A stretch of 64,000 nt of DNA from Syntrophaceae bacterium UBA4054 (GCA_002383495.1 DFZO01000045.1:68442-132441), one strand, 5' to 3'. Positions 8,065-34,003 are shown, counted from the stretch's first letter. The notes: generated from the sequence alone by a model not told the origin. Program-made: numbers and translations.

Positions 8065-9279
8065 TCACTTCAGGGTTCCCTGCGGCGACCCTATCCCCGC
8101 AGAAGCCCGCTTCACGATGTCGTCCAGAACGGCCTGGAGCCAGTCCGTTCCAAGCGCGACCTCACTTGGAAGAAGACCCTGAATGACACGGATGTAATCG
8201 GGCCCTTCTTTTATGATTTGATCCTGTATGACGCGGATAAAGGCGTCCCGTTCCCGCGCCGCCGTCTTCTCTTCGATTTTCGAAGTGAAGCAGACCACAA
8301 GTTCGGGCCACCTGATTTTCTGAATGAAAGGATGCGACGCCGCCGATTCGATGAACTCCCGGAGCCGCTGAAGCCTTTCGAGCAGAGCCATTTCCAGCTT
8401 TCCGGAGGCTCCCTGGTCCATCTCTTCGCCGAACTCCCTGGCGTGAAAGAAGATCCGGCGGATGCGGGCATACCATTGCCGAAGAACAAGGAGGCTGGCC
8501 AGATAATGGATATTGTTCCAGACCTTTCTCTCCACATCTCCGTGAACGCCCTCCCGGGAAAAAACCTTATCCGGGAGGCTTTTCCCGCTGCCGATCAGCT
8601 TTCCCCCTTCCGGTGAATCCTTCCGCAAGATCGTTCCCGCCCGCACAACCGTTCCGTACCCGATTCGGACGGGACCGACGAGGCCGCCCTGGCCCCCTAA
8701 AAAAACAGGGGGCTGATTGATCATCACCCCCCTGGGAACGTCCCCGATCAGGGAAGGCGTCGCCTTGTCCTGATTGGGCGTATAGTTGAAATGGATGTAG
8801 GAACTGCCCACCTCGCTGTGATTTTTCCGGCTTGTTCCGCCCGCCATCAGGCAGTCACAGAAATTGATCAGGCTTCCCAGGGTCACGAAGGGGAAAAGGA
8901 TCGTTTGTTTCAATCCCACGTTGTGGCCGATCCGCACCCCTTCCTCGAGGATGCAGCCCTCTCTCACCTGGGCGCCTGAAGCGACGCTGACCCCTTCAAG
9001 AAAGAGAGAGTCCCGGCAGAAACCGCCCCCGAGTTCCACCCCTGTGCCGATCTGGCAGTTGACGGCTGTGAGCGGAGACTCGTAACCGAGGATCGCGCCC
9101 GACCCGATGGTTGTTTGACCGCCGAACAGTTTCGTTCCGCTGTGCAGGACGGCTCCGTAGCCTGAGATGCGGCCCGCATCCACGTCATCCCCGATCTCAA
9201 TGGAATAGGGGCAGGGTATTCGCACTCCCTTTTTCATCAATGCAATGATTTTATCGTTTAATTTGAAATCCTTTGTCAT
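8065..9279 (-). CDS. Left-handed beta-helix (hexapeptide-repeat) protein, GlmU C-terminal-like, with helical C-terminal domain
   Basis: The first ~230 residues carry repeated [LIV]G-x4 hexapeptide periodicity. The stop lies 3 nt upstream of the GlmS-like gene. Confidence 0.65.
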   Translation of the reverse strand: MTKDFKLNDKIIALMKKGVRIPCPYSIEIGDDVDAGRISGYGAVLHSGTKLFGGQTTIGSGAILGYESPLTAVNCQIGTGVELGGGFCRDSLFLEGVSVASGAQVREGCILEEGVRIGHNVGLKQTILFPFVTLGSLINFCDCLMAGGTSRKNHSEVGSSYIHFNYTPNQDKATPSLIGDVPRGVMINQPPVFLGGQGGLVGPVRIGYGTVVRAGTILRKDSPEGGKLIGSGKSLPDKVFSREGVHGDVERKVWNNIHYLASLLVLRQWYARIRRIFFHAREFGEEMDQGASGKLEMALLERLQRLREFIESAASHPFIQKIRWPELVVCFTSKIEEKTAARERDAFIRVIQDQIIKEGPDYIRVIQGLLPSEVALGTDWLQAVLDDIVKRASAGIGSPQGTLK

Positions 9280-9473
9280 GCGAGCAACTCATTTTAAAAG
9301 GAAGTAATGAAATCGATAGATAAAAGCGGGATGGAAATGGATCACAAACCGGTTTCTGCGCCTCAACGACCATTCAAATAATTTGAGGAGATGTATCACC
9401 GACGCGCTCAAAATGCAAGGAACAATCTTCCTGTAAATTGCCGACAATAATGTGTCTTTCGCTTACCCCCCCC

Positions 9474-10235
9474 CTATATTTTTCCTCTCAGCTTGGCCCA
9501 GACAATGCCCAGATATTCATGGAAGGCCGTTTCCGATTTCCGCAGTGCGCCCGCGCCCGGGTAAAAATCATCCGGAGTGAGGGTTTCCTTTGTTTTGACG
9601 CACAAACCGGCGGGGGCGGGAACCGGTTTCATCTGCTCTTTCCTGAAGAGGGCCATCGACCGGGGCATATGGGCGGCCGACGTGACAAGAACAAATTTAT
9701 CTCTGCCCACGATGTCGCGTATCTTCCGGACCTGTTCTTCCGTGTCCCGGGATGCGGATTCGATGACCATGTCTTTTTCGGTGACCCCGAGCTCCCGCGC
9801 GGCCCCTGCCATCACCTCCGCCTCCGGGACGGGCTGAAAGACCGCGCCCCCCGAGAGAAGCAGTTTGCACCCCGGCAGATGCCGCTGCAGGCGAATCCCT
9901 TCCGCGAGGCTGGCGAGGGAATGTCTCGACAACTGACTCGTGGCGGGGTAACCTTTTTCCGCAATGACGCCGGCGCCGAGCACGGCGATCCATCTGGCGC
10001 CGCGGACTTCGGAGAGACCGGCCGGAGGATACCGGCATTCCAGGGGCATGATCAGTCTGCTTGAGACGGCGTTGTAGCTCATGAGGGCGAGCAGGAGAAT
10101 GCCGAAGGTCATGAGAATTTTTCCCATCCGTTCCCTCTTCCTCGACCAGAGGAGGATCAGACCCACCAGAAGCAGAAGGAGACTGAGGGTCAGGGGAAGG
10201 AAAAGGGGAGAAACAATTTTTTTGAAGAGAAACAT
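9474..10235 (-). CDS. YdcF/ElyC-type DUF218 membrane-anchored protein
   Basis: N-terminal TM segments, then LLLSGG and FVLVTSAAHMPRS motifs typical of DUF218. Confidence 0.7.
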   Translation of the reverse strand: MFLFKKIVSPLFLPLTLSLLLLLVGLILLWSRKRERMGKILMTFGILLLALMSYNAVSSRLIMPLECRYPPAGLSEVRGARWIAVLGAGVIAEKGYPATSQLSRHSLASLAEGIRLQRHLPGCKLLLSGGAVFQPVPEAEVMAGAARELGVTEKDMVIESASRDTEEQVRKIRDIVGRDKFVLVTSAAHMPRSMALFRKEQMKPVPAPAGLCVKTKETLTPDDFYPGAGALRKSETAFHEYLGIVWAKLRGKI

Positions 10236-27374: not shown

Positions 27375-28205
27375 TTATTTAAGGTAAGCAGGCAGTTGCT
27401 TCACATCCTTTCCCTTGAAACTGCATGCCATAGGGCAGGTTTTGCAGGGGCTCTTGGCGGCGGGAAGCGGCGGTTCCCCCTTGATCTTCTGCTCGATGAA
27501 CGCCAGACATTTGTTCACTTTGGCGTCGGGTCCCTCCACGGCCAGAATGACGCAGCCTTCCGATCCTCCCCATCCGCCTGAAGCGAAGTGAACAGCGTCG
27601 ATATCGAAGAGGGTTTCGACGGCATCGAGTTCCGTGAAGACTCTCCCGTCGGCGACGCAGGCCATTCCCGCGCGGGCGCCGATCGTTTTGCCCAAGGCCA
27701 TGGTTCCTGCGTATTGCGCCGCGACCTCCACGGAGGGGATCATTTTTTCAAGACCCACCGGATAGATAACCTCCAGCCCGCGGGCCTTCATGGCCATGTA
27801 AAACTGTCCCATGGTCCCGCCCACCGGGCTCGCCATGAGAACGCCCACATTGCCATAAGGATCGAGAGCGTTCGCTCCTTTGAGCAGGATGTCTCCCGGA
27901 GAGAGCTTGTCCAGAACCGCGCCCGGCTCCACGGGAAGAGCTTTTCCCTTGTGAAAGGTGACGGGCCTTGTCCGATCTTCCTGGCCCAGCACGCACAGCA
28001 CGCCCTTGATGACCTGGCCGGCCACGTAGCCTTCTTTCTTTATCTTTGCGCCGAGAAGTTCTTCGAGGATGTATGCGTTGGTCGATCCCCTGCCGACGAG
28101 AAGATAGCCGTTTTTCTTCGCTTTCTGAATCTCGGGCAGTTTCGCCACGCCCTTCCCGATCAGTCTTTTTGATTCCGACGGTGTAAGTGTAAATAGTGCC
28201 TGCAT
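27375..28205 (-). CDS. Conserved-looking hypothetical protein with C-terminal Cys motif
   Basis: 276-aa ORF with coding-like composition. No family recognised. C-terminus CKTCPMAC. Confidence 0.5.
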   Translation of the reverse strand: MQALFTLTPSESKRLIGKGVAKLPEIQKAKKNGYLLVGRGSTNAYILEELLGAKIKKEGYVAGQVIKGVLCVLGQEDRTRPVTFHKGKALPVEPGAVLDKLSPGDILLKGANALDPYGNVGVLMASPVGGTMGQFYMAMKARGLEVIYPVGLEKMIPSVEVAAQYAGTMALGKTIGARAGMACVADGRVFTELDAVETLFDIDAVHFASGGWGGSEGCVILAVEGPDAKVNKCLAFIEQKIKGEPPLPAAKSPCKTCPMACSFKGKDVKQLPAYLK

Positions 28206-28521: not shown

Positions 28522-28696
28522 CAGGCTGTTCAAAAATGTTCAGATGCAAGGCGTCCTTCGACTGGCTCAGGACAGGCTATATAATATGTCATGGTGAGCT
28601 TGTCGAACCACGCAGCGCAGCATGCAGACGCCGTCCCCGCCCTTCGAATTACTCAGGATAAACTCCAGCGGGGATGGATGTTTTTCAACAGCCTGT
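28522..28696. mobile_element. MITE-like repeat, copy C
   Basis: CAGGCTGTTCAAAAATG ... GGATGTTTTTCAACAGCCTGT. The right end shares one base with the nnr stop codon. Confidence 0.7.
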
Positions 28697-30270
28697 TATA
28701 TGATCCTGCATCCTTTATATATAGCGTCCCATTCCTCCGGAATCCCTTCCCGGTCCAGCCGCATGGCGAGGGGGAGATAGTCCAGGATGTCCTGGGCGCT
28801 GATGCCGTCCTCGCCCCTCTCCTCCGCGGCGAGATCTCCGGCGAACCCGTGGATGAAGACGCCCATGCGAACCGCCTCCTCAATTGGAAGGCCCAGACCG
28901 TGCATGGCGGCGATGGCCCCTGTTAGAACATCGCCGGTACCCGCCTTGGCCATTCCCGGATTGCCGCTCATGTTGATGAAAACCTTTCCGTCGGGACAGC
29001 CGATGAGGGAGTGGGCGCCCTTCAGTACGATCACGGAATTCAGTTCCCCCGCTGTCTGCCGGAGAATGCCGATTTTGTCCGCGTTCATATCCGCGATCTT
29101 CTTTTTCGTTAGCCGAGCCATCTCTCCGGGGTGGGGCGTGAGAATCGTGGCGGCTTTTCTCTTTTTCAGAATCGTCGTCCGGGAGGATATGGCGGTGATG
29201 CCGTCCCCGTCGATGAGCAGGGGCTTGTGGATCCCGGCGGCCAGTTCCCTCACGAGATCCTGGGTCTCCTCGTGCAGGGAAAGCCCGGGTCCCAGGACGA
29301 CCAAGTCCATTTTTTCAGCCAGCGACAGCAGCGCGGCTTTGTTCCTGCGGGCCACGCTTCCGGTCTTTGTTTCCTTCTGGGGGAGGATGACGATCTCGCT
29401 TCCCTTCGCAGCGATGTGGGCCGCGATGGAAGCAGGTGCGGCGAGGCGGGAATAACCGCCTCCAGCCTTGAGGAACGAATAGGCGGCGAAATACGGAGCG
29501 CCGATATAACTCGCCGCTCCGGCAATGAAAAGGACCTCACCGAAATCGCCCTTGTGACCCGCCCTGTTTCTTGGAGGGAGGGGGACCGGAGCATTGATCG
29601 ACACCCTGAGATCGTCCCGGTTCTGGAGTCCGGGTGGATAAGAGATGTGAGAGACGTAGAGCTTTCCGCAATGTTCATATCCGGGATAGAGGATGTTGCC
29701 GCGCTTGGGGAGGCCGAAGGTGATCGTTGAATGGGCCTTGACCGCGGCGCCCAGGACGTTGCCCGTGTCGCCGTCAATTCCCGAAGGGATGTCGAGACTG
29801 TAGACCCGCCTTCCCTTTTCGTTGACGAGATCAATGACCTCACGGTAGAGCCCCTTCACTTGGCGGATCAGCCCCGTACCGAAGATCGCGTCTATGACGG
29901 CATCGGCATGGGCGATGTCGGCGCGAATCGAATCGGCGGTTTCCACGGAAAGCATCTCGAAGGGGAGCCGCTCCGCGATCTCAAAATTCTTTTTTGCCGC
30001 GCCGCCGAATTTTCCCGGATCACCGAGGATGAAGGCCTTGACAGAACCTCCGCCGGAGAGAATCTTTCTTGCCACAACCAGCCCGTCGCCGCCGTTGTTT
30101 CCGACGCCGCAGAGGACAACAAAGGTCCCGTCCCGGACGCCCATTTCCTTCGCGATCAGGCGATACGCCGCCTCCCCAGCGTTTTCCATGAGGATCTCTT
30201 CGGGTATCCCGTATTTTTCCGTGGCCTCGCGGTCCAGGGATCTCATCTCCTGCACACTGCTCACTTTCAT
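28696..30270 (-). CDS. nnr: Bifunctional NAD(P)H-hydrate repair enzyme (epimerase/dehydratase)
   Basis: N-terminal YjeF_N motif GVGNNGGDG and a C-terminal carbohydrate-kinase domain (GPGLS, GTGDVLTG). Confidence 0.9.
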   Translation of the reverse strand: MKVSSVQEMRSLDREATEKYGIPEEILMENAGEAAYRLIAKEMGVRDGTFVVLCGVGNNGGDGLVVARKILSGGGSVKAFILGDPGKFGGAAKKNFEIAERLPFEMLSVETADSIRADIAHADAVIDAIFGTGLIRQVKGLYREVIDLVNEKGRRVYSLDIPSGIDGDTGNVLGAAVKAHSTITFGLPKRGNILYPGYEHCGKLYVSHISYPPGLQNRDDLRVSINAPVPLPPRNRAGHKGDFGEVLFIAGAASYIGAPYFAAYSFLKAGGGYSRLAAPASIAAHIAAKGSEIVILPQKETKTGSVARRNKAALLSLAEKMDLVVLGPGLSLHEETQDLVRELAAGIHKPLLIDGDGITAISSRTTILKKRKAATILTPHPGEMARLTKKKIADMNADKIGILRQTAGELNSVIVLKGAHSLIGCPDGKVFINMSGNPGMAKAGTGDVLTGAIAAMHGLGLPIEEAVRMGVFIHGFAGDLAAEERGEDGISAQDILDYLPLAMRLDREGIPEEWDAIYKGCRII

Positions 30271-30854
30271 TTCAGTGCTCCTTCCAGGATGTTTGTCCGT
30301 TGGTCCTCTTCCCGCCTCGGCATGGCCCCGACCTTCAGCCGCTGCCTGGAGGTAAAATACGCGAAGGACCGGTTCTTTTTCAAGGCGATATTCATGGAAA
30401 AGTATTTCAATATTTCCATCATGAAGTCGATGCGGGAATCGAATTTCTCCGGTATCAGCACGTTGAAGTCCTCTTTGGTGACGGCGTCCGTTGTCTCCAT
30501 ATCCGGCAGGCCGAGGATGGAAGAGGCCGCATCGTCGAGACCCGCGAGATACCAGCTTTCAATTTCCTTGATGACCACCCGTATCCGGCCGCCGTCTATA
30601 TTGCGGAACCGATCCAGGATACGCTGTTTTTTGGCCGTAACACAGGGTTCCTGATCGATGTCGGCCACGAGGATGTAATCGTTGTCGGAGGCCATGATAC
30701 CCCGGAGGAGATTGACGACCTTGGATTTCTTGAGTGAGGCGTAGGTCCTGACCTCCACACGATTGTATTTTTTTTCAAGAAGCGGCTGGAGAACGGCCTC
30801 GAAGAACCTTGCGTCGCTGCCGCCTTCCACCCAGATGAAGAGCTTACGTCTCAT
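30267..30854 (-). CDS. Stand-alone TOPRIM-like protein (DUF4276/DUF4435-like by recollection)
   Basis: Start set at MRRKLFIWVEGGSD (ATG 30854). Conserved Glu in VEGGSD (30827-30825), DxD in VADIDQ (30662-30654), and EIESWYLAG. It overlaps the ATPase gene by 11 nt and forms ATGA with the nnr start. Confidence 0.65.
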   Translation of the reverse strand: MRRKLFIWVEGGSDARFFEAVLQPLLEKKYNRVEVRTYASLKKSKVVNLLRGIMASDNDYILVADIDQEPCVTAKKQRILDRFRNIDGGRIRVVIKEIESWYLAGLDDAASSILGLPDMETTDAVTKEDFNVLIPEKFDSRIDFMMEILKYFSMNIALKKNRSFAYFTSRQRLKVGAMPRREEDQRTNILEGALK

Positions 30855-32103
30855 GATTGTCCTGATCCAGCAGGTTCTGGATGAAGAGATCTTCGATGCC
30901 GACTTCGTGTTCCAGGAAGGTGCGGACCTCTTTGCGTTCTCCGGGCTTGGAGACGGTTGAAAATCCTTCCCTGCCTCGGGAGACGAGGATGATGTTTCCC
31001 AGCTCCGCGCATTTGACAATCTCCGGATGATGGGTGGTGATCAGAATCTGTTTGTTTTCAGCGGCCTCCTTCATCATGGTCACGACCTTTGGAATGAGGA
31101 AGGGATAGAGGTTCTTTTCCGGTTCCTCGATGATGAGGAGGGATTTGTCTTCGAAGTAGAGGGCGATGATGAGGGCCGTGATCATGATGGTCCCGTCGGA
31201 GACCACATCGGCGGGGAAGTAGAGATCCCGGGAGTACACCTCCCGCATCTTGAAGAGGAGAGAGCTGTCGCCGAGCTTCTCCACGTTGAGGTCCTCGACA
31301 AAAGGAAGAGAATTCCGGATCAGGTTCGTGAATTTCCTTTTCTTCTCCCGGTCGGCGGTGATTTCTTTGAGAACCAGGGCCAGATTGCTCCCGTCTTCCT
31401 CGAGGTCCCGTTTTCCGGTCACGGAGACGGACTTTTTGGGCAGTCTGGGATCGAAATCGTAGATCCCCATTCTTTCGAAGAACTTTTCAAAGCGATGGAC
31501 GAACTCAAAAAAGGGGGTTTCGAGAAGAAGCGCATCGGGCCGCAGCCGTTCGTCTTTAAAAAAGGCCGGGACGATGTCATCGGAATCCAGGGGGACGTTC
31601 CGGGGCAGGTCCAGCCTGTAATCGATTTTACCTCTTCTGTTCGTCAGGACACTCTGTCCGCGCCCCAGCGTTGTTCGTCCTGCGGTCTTTTTACCCTTCC
31701 CCGGCGGGGCAAGAAATTCCAGGGATTTTGCCAGGGAATCCTCGACGACGGTAAAACCCTTTCCTCTCCCGTGAAACCGGATGGCGAATTCATAAACCAC
31801 GTCGTGAATCCGTATGCCGATGTTCTTCCGCTTCAATTCCAGGCCGGCGTCGTATACGATTTTGAAGCGCATCACCTCGGAGGACGCGAGCCGTGTATTC
31901 CGGACATAATCGCTTCCCCCCTGAAGGGAGATGGCGTTGTTGAGACCGTGGTTGGCGATATCTCTCAGGAAGCGAAAGATCTGAATGAAATTGGATTTGC
32001 CCGAAGCGTTCGCGCCTATGATGACATTGAACCGGCCCAGCCTTTCAATGCGGGCGTCTCGGAAGCTCTTGAAGTTTGAGATGTGGAGGTCTTTAATCAT
32101 CAT
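30844..32103 (-). CDS. ABC/SMC-like ATPase (AAA_15/AAA_21 type)
   Basis: Start MMIKDLHISNFKSF with GGAGAA 8-9 nt upstream. Walker A GANASGKS (32016-31993), Walker B LLIIEEPE, and an H-loop ITTHHP. Confidence 0.75.
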   Translation of the reverse strand: MMIKDLHISNFKSFRDARIERLGRFNVIIGANASGKSNFIQIFRFLRDIANHGLNNAISLQGGSDYVRNTRLASSEVMRFKIVYDAGLELKRKNIGIRIHDVVYEFAIRFHGRGKGFTVVEDSLAKSLEFLAPPGKGKKTAGRTTLGRGQSVLTNRRGKIDYRLDLPRNVPLDSDDIVPAFFKDERLRPDALLLETPFFEFVHRFEKFFERMGIYDFDPRLPKKSVSVTGKRDLEEDGSNLALVLKEITADREKKRKFTNLIRNSLPFVEDLNVEKLGDSSLLFKMREVYSRDLYFPADVVSDGTIMITALIIALYFEDKSLLIIEEPEKNLYPFLIPKVVTMMKEAAENKQILITTHHPEIVKCAELGNIILVSRGREGFSTVSKPGERKEVRTFLEHEVGIEDLFIQNLLDQDNHET

Positions 32104-32123
32104 GGCGGATCGTTCTCCTGCCG

Positions 32124-32456
32124 TCAGGTCTTCTTCTTGACCTCCCCGTTGAGCCATGTCAGGTAATCCTCACTGCCTCCTGCAACGGGCAGGGCGATGA
32201 TCTCGGGGGTCTCGTAAGGGTGAATCGCCTTGATCTCTTTTTCAAGTTCGTCGTAAAGATCTTCACGGGTCTTTATGAAGCAGAGCCATTCCTCCGATCT
32301 TTCAATCCTGCCCTGCCATCGGTACGTGCTCACCACGGGTCCCATGATCTGGACACAACCGGCGACTTTCTTCTCAATCAGCGTACGGGCTATATTTTCG
32401 GCATCTTCTTTTTTGCCCGTTGTCGTGAAGACCTGGATATAATTGTCGGGAGTCAT
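32124..32456 (-). CDS. cutA: Divalent-cation tolerance protein CutA
   Basis: Motifs VAGCVQI, STYRWQG and YETPEIIALPV. The start at Met13 gives the usual ~110 aa; the ORF track starts at 32492. Confidence 0.8.
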   Translation of the reverse strand: MTPDNYIQVFTTTGKKEDAENIARTLIEKKVAGCVQIMGPVVSTYRWQGRIERSEEWLCFIKTREDLYDELEKEIKAIHPYETPEIIALPVAGGSEDYLTWLNGEVKKKT

Positions 32457-32539
32457 GTCATGATCCGCCTGTGATCTGATTGTTATGGGCAAAAAAACTG
32501 TTAAATTTTATATCTTATTTTTTCTGAAAATGAAAACAG

Positions 32540-33340: not shown

Positions 33341-34003
33341 CTATTCAAACCGGACATCGTCAAAATTGATATGACCCCATCCTCCGCTGGATGCATCGAT
33401 CAGCCTGATCTGAGCCAGCTGCCCCCGATAGGCGGAAACGTTCCATTTCACACGGATCATGGTCTCGGTGCAATGGCCCGTGGCCTTGAGAACGGCCTGC
33501 CCGTTCACGATGAGTTCGACCCGTTCCGTGTTCATGTCACAACCGCCGCCGATCAGGAAACTGAGGGTCGGTTTTGTTATGGTGAACGGCTCGGACGTCA
33601 GGGTTCCCTGTGGTCCGTCTCCCTGGATTTGGCCCGGAGGATCGGACGGCCGGTGCCGGTTTTCATAACCGCCGATCCAGTAATTTCCCTGATGATTCGA
33701 GGGCTGGCCGCGGTGACGTGCGGTGGGATTATCACCATAGGTCGGCTGGGTTGAAAAGGCATTCCCCGTGGCCACCCAGCCGTTAAGATCGCCGCTTTCA
33801 AAATCCCAGGTCATGCTGCCGGCCGCGGGTTTTGCTCCTTCTTCGAAGGATATGCCGATGACATCCTCCTTGTTCACCGGGACATTGACGACCCGGCCGT
33901 CTTTGAGAAAAATCGCCATTCCCGCAAACGCCATGGATGCCGCTGAGAGAATGAGAACGGCAGAGAAAAGAAATGACCGGAATGTTTTGTGAAATGTCTT
34001 CAT
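33341..34003 (-). CDS. Secreted beta-sandwich (concanavalin/GH32-accessory-like) protein, function unknown
   Basis: Signal peptide MKTFHKTFRSFLFSAVLILSAASMAFAG. C-terminal pattern GTLTSEPF...FLIGGG...WGHINFDDV. Confidence 0.5.
   Translation of the reverse strand: MKTFHKTFRSFLFSAVLILSAASMAFAGMAIFLKDGRVVNVPVNKEDVIGISFEEGAKPAAGSMTWDFESGDLNGWVATGNAFSTQPTYGDNPTARHRGQPSNHQGNYWIGGYENRHRPSDPPGQIQGDGPQGTLTSEPFTITKPTLSFLIGGGCDMNTERVELIVNGQAVLKATGHCTETMIRVKWNVSAYRGQLAQIRLIDASSGGWGHINFDDVRFE

Follow-up and report, generated by a model that had tools for sequence, protein, structure and literature searches.

Two adjacent minus-strand genes, located between cutA and nnr in a 64-kb stretch of DNA from Syntrophaceae bacterium UBA4054 (the whole stretch analyzed, hereafter "the window", in whose numbering its positions are given), encode an ABC-type ATPase of 419 amino acids (aa) and a stand-alone TOPRIM protein of 195 aa. 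The pair is very probably an ATP-regulated OLD-type TOPRIM nuclease split over two polypeptides, and we lean towards the view that it is an immune module, fixed in the chromosome, which acts against phages or other mobile DNA. That the two genes form a split ABC-ATPase/TOPRIM pair of the OLD, PARIS or AbiL kind had been proposed in a first-pass annotation of this DNA, and the fold and the catalytic residues bore this out.

Fold and predicted active site of the small protein

The AlphaFold (AF2) model of the small protein was confident (predicted local distance difference test score (pLDDT) 89.7; predicted template-modelling score 0.82) and contained the expected TOPRIM fold. Its top four Foldseek matches among PDB structures were to Class 2 OLD nucleases of Xanthomonas and Burkholderia (6NJV/6NK8), in each case to the C-terminal catalytic region, at a probability of 1.00, a template-modelling (TM) score of 0.41-0.51 and an alignment of about 205 columns which takes in the whole small protein. 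The best viral structural match was an RloB-like TOPRIM phage protein (E=2e-3). By sequence, the small-protein profile found nothing meaningful among PDB chains, and the link to OLD thus comes from fold comparison alone.

Residue conservation was examined in 47 relatives. Of the TOPRIM-like signature read in the first pass, the fold, the glutamate and the first aspartate held, while the second aspartate of the DxD was D in 31/47 and N in 16/47 and is therefore not invariant; the EIESW motif is the counterpart of the metal-B ligands in OLD nucleases. The spacing from E10 to D65 (55 residues) equals that from E400 to D455 in the Burkholderia pseudomallei (Bp) enzyme, whose E400 and E404 have roles in the two-metal site (PMC6755086). 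Beyond the Glu and the DxD, residues were matched by their order and i/i+2 spacing and not by superposed coordinates. The small protein is predicted to be a TOPRIM nuclease with the OLD-type catalytic set E10, D14, D65, D/N67, E97, E99 and K127. Fold match and conserved catalytic residues together point to a catalytically intact OLD-type nuclease which is divided between two polypeptides.

The ATPase as an ABC head

All of the ATPase motifs reported earlier (Walker A GANASGKS at 32016-31993, Walker B and the ITTHHP H-loop) were read as described. Of the Pfam families which had been named as candidates, AAA_21 matched the ATPase over residues 25-363 (E=2.6e-32) and AAA_15 at 1.3e-18. The best PADLOC model was HEC-01A PDLC04176 (E=2.2e-50; residues 1-413 against profile positions 1-366 of 371), and several further HEC-01A models matched at 1e-47 to 1e-34. 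The AF2 model (pLDDT 77.9) showed an ABC head with a beta-sheet insert, the top Foldseek matches of which were the SMC head, retron/Septu PtuA, Rad50 and GajA (E about 1e-12 to 1e-10); against PDB chains by sequence, there were weak P-loop-level matches only (SMC3, GajA, ABC transporters). Thus the model presents the ATPase as an ABC head of the SMC/Rad50/GajA/PtuA-like type. A second ATPase paralogue was searched for within the window and not found.

Linkage of the two genes and distribution of the pair

Relatives of the small protein number about 995 at 90% clustering, and a profile search recovered 1,317 clusters of it at 50% identity. A scan of one genome per species yielded 316 loci, 80 of which were kept and, together with three more, studied as a set of 83 (loci, here and below, are designated by L and a number). 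The ATPase gene lay directly upstream of the TOPRIM gene in 83/83 loci, in bacteria and archaea alike, and the two open reading frames (ORFs) overlapped or were at most 6 nucleotides (nt) apart in 73/83; the exceptions were split ATPase frames and one insertion sequence (IS) insertion. The AAA_21 match, the roughly 995 relatives and the unbroken adjacency put the pair far beyond chance.

The IS insertion was found in a metagenome-assembled genome (MAG) of Methanoregula (L015:7617-10591), where a 385-aa transposase-like ORF (8723-9880, opposite strand) stands between the two genes and replaces the C-terminus of the ATPase, so that the IS element broke the pair. In L023, L028, L031, L039, L063, L067, L077 and L078, the ATPase frame lies in two to three pieces upstream of the TOPRIM match; several of these are long-read assemblies, and sequencing frameshift and real decay are indistinguishable.

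A tree of the concatenated pair had three clades: Syntrophales, a mixed-phylum clade and Methanoregula. The mixed clade comprises KSB1, Planctomycetota, Dehalococcoidia, Nitrospirota, Atribacteria, Clostridia, Bacteroidales, Aerophobetes and Thermococci, among others. Its pairs have neighbours that are unrelated to one another and mostly metabolic; such a mixture of phyla with unrelated neighbours is the pattern expected from horizontal transfer. No third partner is conserved across lineages, the mixed-clade neighbours all being singletons.

Relationship to known systems

HEC-01 (Hma-embedded candidate 01 of PADLOC-DB) is an ABC ATPase plus a TOPRIM protein within Hma defence systems (Payne et al., bioRxiv 10.1101/2024.01.29.577857). 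It shares with the window pair the order of an ABC ATPase followed by a TOPRIM protein of ~190-230 aa with an OLD-like metal site, and its profiles are the best matches of both proteins. For the small protein the match was HEC-01B PDLC04194 (3.6e-9; residues 5-105 against profile positions 6-104 of 204), and HEC-01B models matched 37 of the 47 relatives (PDLC04191, best 1.8e-11); here as for the ATPase, the assignment consists of matches to individual profile models. In Pfam, the small protein fell below every threshold (DUF4276 (PF14103) 17.6 bits against a cutoff of 30.2, E=0.0048, profile positions 1-114 of 192; DUF4435 15.7 bits against 27), so that DUF4276 and DUF4435, both among the candidate families named in the first pass, were found only below their cutoffs; NCBIfam gave no match. 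Among the 47 relatives, DUF4276 was detected in 29 (E<=0.01, best 7.5e-7), DUF3226 in 19, DUF4435 in 10 and an OLD-like TOPRIM in eight, and a few relatives carry a precomputed PF14103 match. DUF4276 is a recognised TOPRIM domain: in MADS it is Mad4, and in Menshen it serves as an effector domain. The PARIS paper (PMC11464382) includes it in its AAA15/21 tree as well.

Judged by these profile matches, the pair is a divergent member of the described HEC-01/DUF4276 (Mad3-Mad4-like) kind and not a new family. The earlier suggestion of a distinct, undescribed family, made with the shortness of the TOPRIM partner in mind, was thereby overturned: the HEC-01A and HEC-01B matches and the DUF4276 hits among relatives speak against it, and about 190 aa is a usual length there. 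Unlike HEC-01, however, the window subfamily is embedded neither in Hma nor in other defence systems and sits in housekeeping operons with vertical inheritance.

The MAD3-MAD4 part of MADS likewise combines an AAA_15/21 ATPase with a DUF4276-type TOPRIM, and the window ATPase matches mad3 and the small protein, faintly, mad4. Nevertheless, the NCBIfam MAD3 model (NF047739) gave 118.3 bits against a cutoff of 420, the pair is without methyltransferase or mad1-2/5-8 genes, and the other mad-type matches in the window are generic (FtsK, ABC-type); MADS itself was therefore rejected on the MAD3 score and the absence of the other mad genes. To the Class 2 OLD proteins of B. pseudomallei and X. campestris (6NK8, 6NJV) and to P2 Old, the likeness is that of a part to a whole: the small protein corresponds to the entire OLD C-terminal region (TOPRIM plus helical domain), the metal-A, metal-B and Lys residues occur in common order, and the OLD ATPase is also of ABC type. 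The difference is that ATPase and nuclease of the pair are separate (two ORFs with their own start and stop, in all of the 83 loci), and the TM score is only about 0.5.

Other candidates were rejected. Gabija GajA has a similar ABC head and also a TOPRIM domain, but it is a fusion protein which needs the helicase GajB, whereas the window pair is split; no GajB UvrD-like helicase is present in the flanks, the neighbours being cutA and nnr. PtuA of Septu and retrons has a similar ABC head, but its partner is an HNH nuclease, absent here. The ATPase matches AbiLi at 6.9e-26, but the small protein has no AbiLii sequence match, and its likeness to the AbiLii/RloB type of partner is limited to the structural resemblance to the RloB-like phage protein. 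RecF/RecR was dismissed, as TIGR00611 scored 29 bits (cutoff 172) and aligned with no more than the N-terminal 40 residues.

Proposed mechanism and the case for immunity

In the mechanism that we propose, the ABC ATPase would dimerise head-to-head on ATP and act as sensor and regulator. The TOPRIM core and the helical domain of the 195-aa effector would build a two-metal active site (E10, D14, D65, D67, E97, E99, K127), and the effector, once licensed by the ATPase, would cut nucleic acid: DNA, in the manner of OLD and GajA, or else a tRNA, in the manner of AriB. The role would most likely be immunity against phages or other mobile DNA. A single insertion between cutA and nnr in an ancestor of the Syntrophales clade brought in the pair, which has since been kept as a presumably co-transcribed and translationally coupled member of the operon. 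The data themselves establish what domains and fold the proteins have, that the catalytic and ATPase motifs are conserved, that the two genes are strictly linked, and that the pair was inserted once, descends vertically and is under purifying selection. The physical complex of the two proteins, the trigger, the substrate and the defence role are parts of this scheme that we infer.

Immunity is favoured because the only contexts known for the family are Hma systems, MADS, Menshen and prophage cargo, because one phage assay was positive, and because of its horizontal spread. The assay comes from a later study of HEC-01, in which E. coli B with one representative was protected from one or more of the phages T4, T5 and T7. 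Prophage cargo is seen in two siphovirus-like IMG/VR sequences: in L161 (6686-8498) a distant copy of the pair follows Dit/tail genes and a GH25 endolysin, and in L162 (6730-8522) the pair lies 5 kb upstream of a large terminase and an SPP1-type portal. These relatives are full-length (34-40% identity for the small protein, 36-37% for the ATPase), and as cargo they show that the wider family does travel on phages. Such a position is classic for prophage-encoded exclusion genes such as P2 old.

Evidence weighing against immunity

Doubt about immunity, and the thought of domestication, arise because of the long vertical retention, the housekeeping-level constraint, the operon coupling and the lack of defence-island context; six points weigh against an immune role. 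i) The first test of HEC-01 found no protection (bioRxiv 10.1101/2024.01.29.577857). ii) The HEC-01B profiles cover the N-terminal half of the small protein only, at modest E-values. iii) No other defence system was found in the 64-kb window, and the pair was not seen in defence islands at the Syntrophales, Methanoregula and mixed-clade loci examined; PADLOC on 106 mixed-clade neighbours gave few matches (Fic, PIN, Csa3, other AAA_21, some of these being pieces of the ATPase of the pair itself). iv) The small protein had no match among 72,556 plasmid and 50,697 phage records, a weak negative given that cultured hosts dominate these. v) The history of the pair at its two main sites is vertical, and vi) its genes are constrained like housekeeping genes, as laid out below.

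In Syntrophales, the copies all lie between cutA and nnr. A tree of nnr put the pair-carrying loci into one clade (50/50 neighbor-joining bootstraps), with a topology matching that of the pair; this congruence is that of vertical inheritance. A protein search with nnr found 18 relatives at identities of at least 71%, 15 of them on contigs long enough to judge, and the pair was present in 15/15 (four read directly, 11 matched to the ATPase/TOPRIM search results by contigs of identical length). Among nnr relatives at 65-66% identity on long contigs, the pair was present in 0/4. A scan with nnr alone gave 80 metagenomic loci, of which the two closest (90% and 83% identity) had cutA-ATPase-TOPRIM, and the other 78 (60-68% identity) neither the pair nor cutA upstream. 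In Methanoregula, the pair occupies one position in about 40 species-level genomes, within a conserved same-strand block: 2-oxoacid:ferredoxin oxidoreductase, membrane protein, IPT-repeat protein, DUF2179 and TspO precede it, and the flavodiiron protein (FprA), desulfoferrodoxin, TrkH and NifH/NifD-like genes follow.

An "empty" form of the cutA-nnr site occurs in one of the four nnr relatives at 65-66% identity, a Syntrophales MAG outside the pair clade (GCA_030655775.1; L166:3999-6575), in the order SpoU methylase, cutA, flavodoxin, nnr, without the pair. In pair-carrying relatives, an ORF cluster of the same length (160 aa), a candidate flavodoxin, lies upstream of cutA instead; apparently, the gene order changed around the insertion. 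Most simply, the pair was inserted once into the pre-existing cutA...nnr neighbourhood of a Syntrophales ancestor and has been passed on stably by vertical descent ever since.

Pairwise protein distances of the pair correlated with those of its neighbours at r=0.72-0.86 for FprA, TrkH, TspO and KorB and at r=0.91-0.97 for nnr and cutA, the lowest of the seven comparisons being with DUF2179 (r=0.51-0.60), and the distances of pair and neighbours were similar in size. The ratio of non-synonymous to synonymous substitution rates (dN/dS) was 0.08-0.15 for the ATPase gene and 0.10-0.19 for the TOPRIM gene (the closest TOPRIM gene pair having no non-synonymous change, i.e. a ratio of 0), as compared with 0.13-0.27 for nnr, 0.05-0.13 for cutA and 0.14-0.18 for the methyltransferase. 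Thus the dN/dS values and the agreement in distances indicate that both genes are functional and constrained like housekeeping genes.

Alternative explanations

The alternative with the most behind it, though on the whole we judge it rather unlikely, is that in Syntrophales and Methanoregula the pair is a domesticated housekeeping nuclease, engaged in DNA repair or end processing (compare Rad50-Mre11 and RecF-RecR) or in RNA maturation (compare the TOPRIM RNase M5). It would account for the single insertion and the retention across a clade whose nnr goes down to about 60% identity, for the pair in 15/15 nnr-selected contigs, for the constant TspO-FprA position in about 40 Methanoregula species-level genomes, for dN/dS and divergence equal to those of housekeeping neighbours, and for the coupling to cutA/nnr in one operon with no terminator between and no defence-island context. 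The first-pass annotation had held that a fixed core partnership with cutA/nnr outside defence islands would speak against defence; for this subfamily that is largely what was found, while the distant relatives are prophage cargo and one HEC-01 representative did protect against phage. Its remark that embedding in a housekeeping operon is unusual was well placed. On the other hand, the pair is patchy across prokaryotes and missing from 78/80 nnr relatives (60-68% identity); the cutA-flavodoxin-nnr arrangement of L166 shows that close relatives can dispense with it; the mixed-phylum clade bespeaks transfer between phyla, and relatives are borne on prophages; the nearest profile matches are all defence candidates; and one copy was broken by an IS element, with several more having split ATPase frames. 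The pair is probably immune in origin.

A selfish addiction (toxin-antitoxin-like) module, in which the ATPase would restrain a TOPRIM toxin and the pair would persist since its loss kills the cell, is quite improbable. The compact two-gene layout with overlapping frames would suit it, as would the Pfam AAA_21 label, which refers to AbiEii/type IV toxin-antitoxin systems, and the sequestration of toxic AriB by AriA in PARIS (PMC11464382). However, both genes evolve at housekeeping rates and descend strictly vertically over long periods, the pair is single-copy per genome with none among the plasmid records searched, and such modules usually turn over fast.

A bona fide PARIS (AriA/AriB), sensing anti-restriction proteins and cutting tRNA-Lys, is the least credible of all: although PARIS too is a split ABC ATPase plus TOPRIM effector (and offers a mechanistic template: a nuclease held by the ATPase until a trigger frees it), and although the ATPase matches the PADLOC AriA model (7.8e-32) and the small protein has a faint DUF4435/AriB signal, that signal stays below cutoff for DUF4435 (15.7 bits against 27) and reaches only E=0.0051 over residues 3-68 for AriB, the HEC-01A/B models give much better scores, the insert in the ATPase is a beta-sheet and not the helical IS1/IS2 bundle of AriA (PMC11464382), PARIS is typically found on satellites or phages, and the 195-aa partner is, as had been remarked in the first pass, shorter than AriB, a DUF4435 protein of 35 kDa (about 300 aa; PMC11464382).

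Significance of a chromosomally fixed pair

The molecular type is already catalogued (HEC-01, Mad3-4, OLD-like), and the pair adds no new kind of system. The new part is evolutionary: a copy in a housekeeping operon, inherited vertically and under strong purifying selection. It is a natural experiment in which one module exists as prophage cargo, as a horizontally scattered pair and as a fixed operon member in two lineages, and it speaks to two questions: for how long a defence module can persist, and whether some modules get co-opted for cellular functions. We raise, as a doubtful but possible outcome, the domestication of an immune-type split-OLD nuclease in the Syntrophales clade and in Methanoregulaceae (syntrophically linked anaerobes), or its conversion there into a "core" immune gene that hardly turns over; it would be hard-wired in the cutA-nnr and TspO-FprA operons and conserved like an essential gene. 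If true, this would imply a cellular role, so far unrecognised, for ABC-ATPase/TOPRIM pairs. For biochemistry, the subfamily, which by its sequences appears catalytically intact, offers about 1,300 clusters at 50% identity from the poorly characterised HEC-01 group.

Operon layout and neighbouring genes

Coordinates of the pair, its motifs and its flanking genes are collected in Table 1. The most plausible start of the ATPase gene is ATG 32103, which an AGGAGA Shine-Dalgarno sequence (32119-32114) precedes by 10 nt, and the stop codon of the gene is 30846-30844; the longest mechanical ORF reaches back to 32157, into cutA. The gap to cutA (stop codon 32126-32124) is 20 nt and not the 21 nt first given. 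The 11-nt overlap of the 195-aa gene (ATG 30854) with the ATPase gene and its ATGA overlap with nnr (30270-30267) had both been read correctly; the latter is also present in L163-L165 and L170, and deeper relatives have a gap of 11-636 nt. A promoter and terminator scan inside the cutA-to-nnr stretch found nothing convincing and, between cutA and nnr, no minus-strand terminator-like site. The GC content of the pair (0.53-0.55, as against 0.58-0.62 for nnr and 0.51 for cutA) gave no clear island signal.

Table 1. Positions of the ATPase/TOPRIM pair, its motifs and the flanking genes in the window
Feature	Position	Strand	Evidence and remarks
ABC-type (SMC/Rad50/OLD-like) ATPase, 419 aa, HEC-01A-like	30844..32103	-	Pfam, PADLOC, AF2, Foldseek
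Stand-alone TOPRIM nuclease subunit (predicted), 195 aa, TOPRIM core and helical domain, HEC-01B/DUF4276-like	30267..30854	-	AF2, Foldseek, PADLOC
nnr	28696-30270	-	Pfam YjeF_N and Carb_kinase
cutA	32124-32492	-	Pfam CutA1 3.9e-37
cutA-ATPase spacer, 20 nt, with AGGAGA Shine-Dalgarno	32104..32123	-	Sequence
ATPase stop/TOPRIM start overlap, 11 nt; translational coupling	30844..30854	-	Sequence; TOPRIM ATG at 30854
TOPRIM stop/nnr start ATGA overlap	30267..30270	-	TGA 30269-30267, nnr ATG 30270-30268
Walker A/P-loop GANASGKS (G30-S37)	31993..32016	-	Sequence; G30, N32, G35 and K36 invariant in 43 relatives
Q-loop glutamine Q61	31921..31923	-	Invariant in 43 relatives
ABC signature-like motif S302-D-G-T305	31189..31200	-	All four residues invariant in 43 relatives
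Walker B LLIIEE (E326 acidic, E327 catalytic glutamate)	31123..31140	-	Sequence; I324, E326, E327 and P328 invariant
H-loop ITTHHP (H358)	31024..31041	-	Sequence; T357 and H358 invariant
TOPRIM glutamate E10 and D14 (VEGGSD)	30813..30827	-	Each 47/47; counterparts of Bp OLD E400/E404
DxD D65-I-D67	30654..30662	-	D65 47/47; residue 67 D in 31, N in 16; counterparts of Bp OLD D455/D457
E97-I-E99 (KEIESW), proposed metal-B ligands	30558..30566	-	E97 and E99 each 46/47; W101 47/47; counterparts of Bp OLD T506/E508
K127, helical domain, candidate counterpart of Bp OLD K562	30474..30476	-	47/47; assigned by inference

The closest neighbours in the window are a polyprenyl synthase, nnr, cutA, an S-adenosylmethionine (SAM) methyltransferase, GNAT, Lgt and thioredoxin reductase, and the remainder of the 64 kb codes for nucleotide biosynthesis, FtsK, SSB, molybdopterin enzymes and cobalt transport; tRNA genes are absent from the window. 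PADLOC models run against 52 further window proteins gave generic matches only, most plausibly FtsK and an ABC-transporter ATPase. Two operon-flanking proteins without Pfam matches, one of 276 aa downstream of nnr (27375-28205, minus strand) and one of 220 aa with an N-terminal signal-like segment (33341-34003, minus strand), keep their syntenic positions in every close relative (with 90-99% identity in L081 and L098).

A cutA homologue (35-44% identity to that of the window) also lies 7-9 kb upstream of the pair in many Methanoregula loci, in the same block (L021, L024, L028, L032, L034-L036, L045, L051, L054, L062, L063, L066 and L072, at about 300-2800); the presence of cutA near the pair in both lineages is probably a coincidence. 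The C-terminal 25 residues of the TOPRIM protein (171-195) are specific to the subclade and predicted to be disordered (pLDDT below 50), and the DNA for them also encodes the Shine-Dalgarno sequence and start of nnr. Given this double use, the tail may exist mainly to keep the translational coupling.

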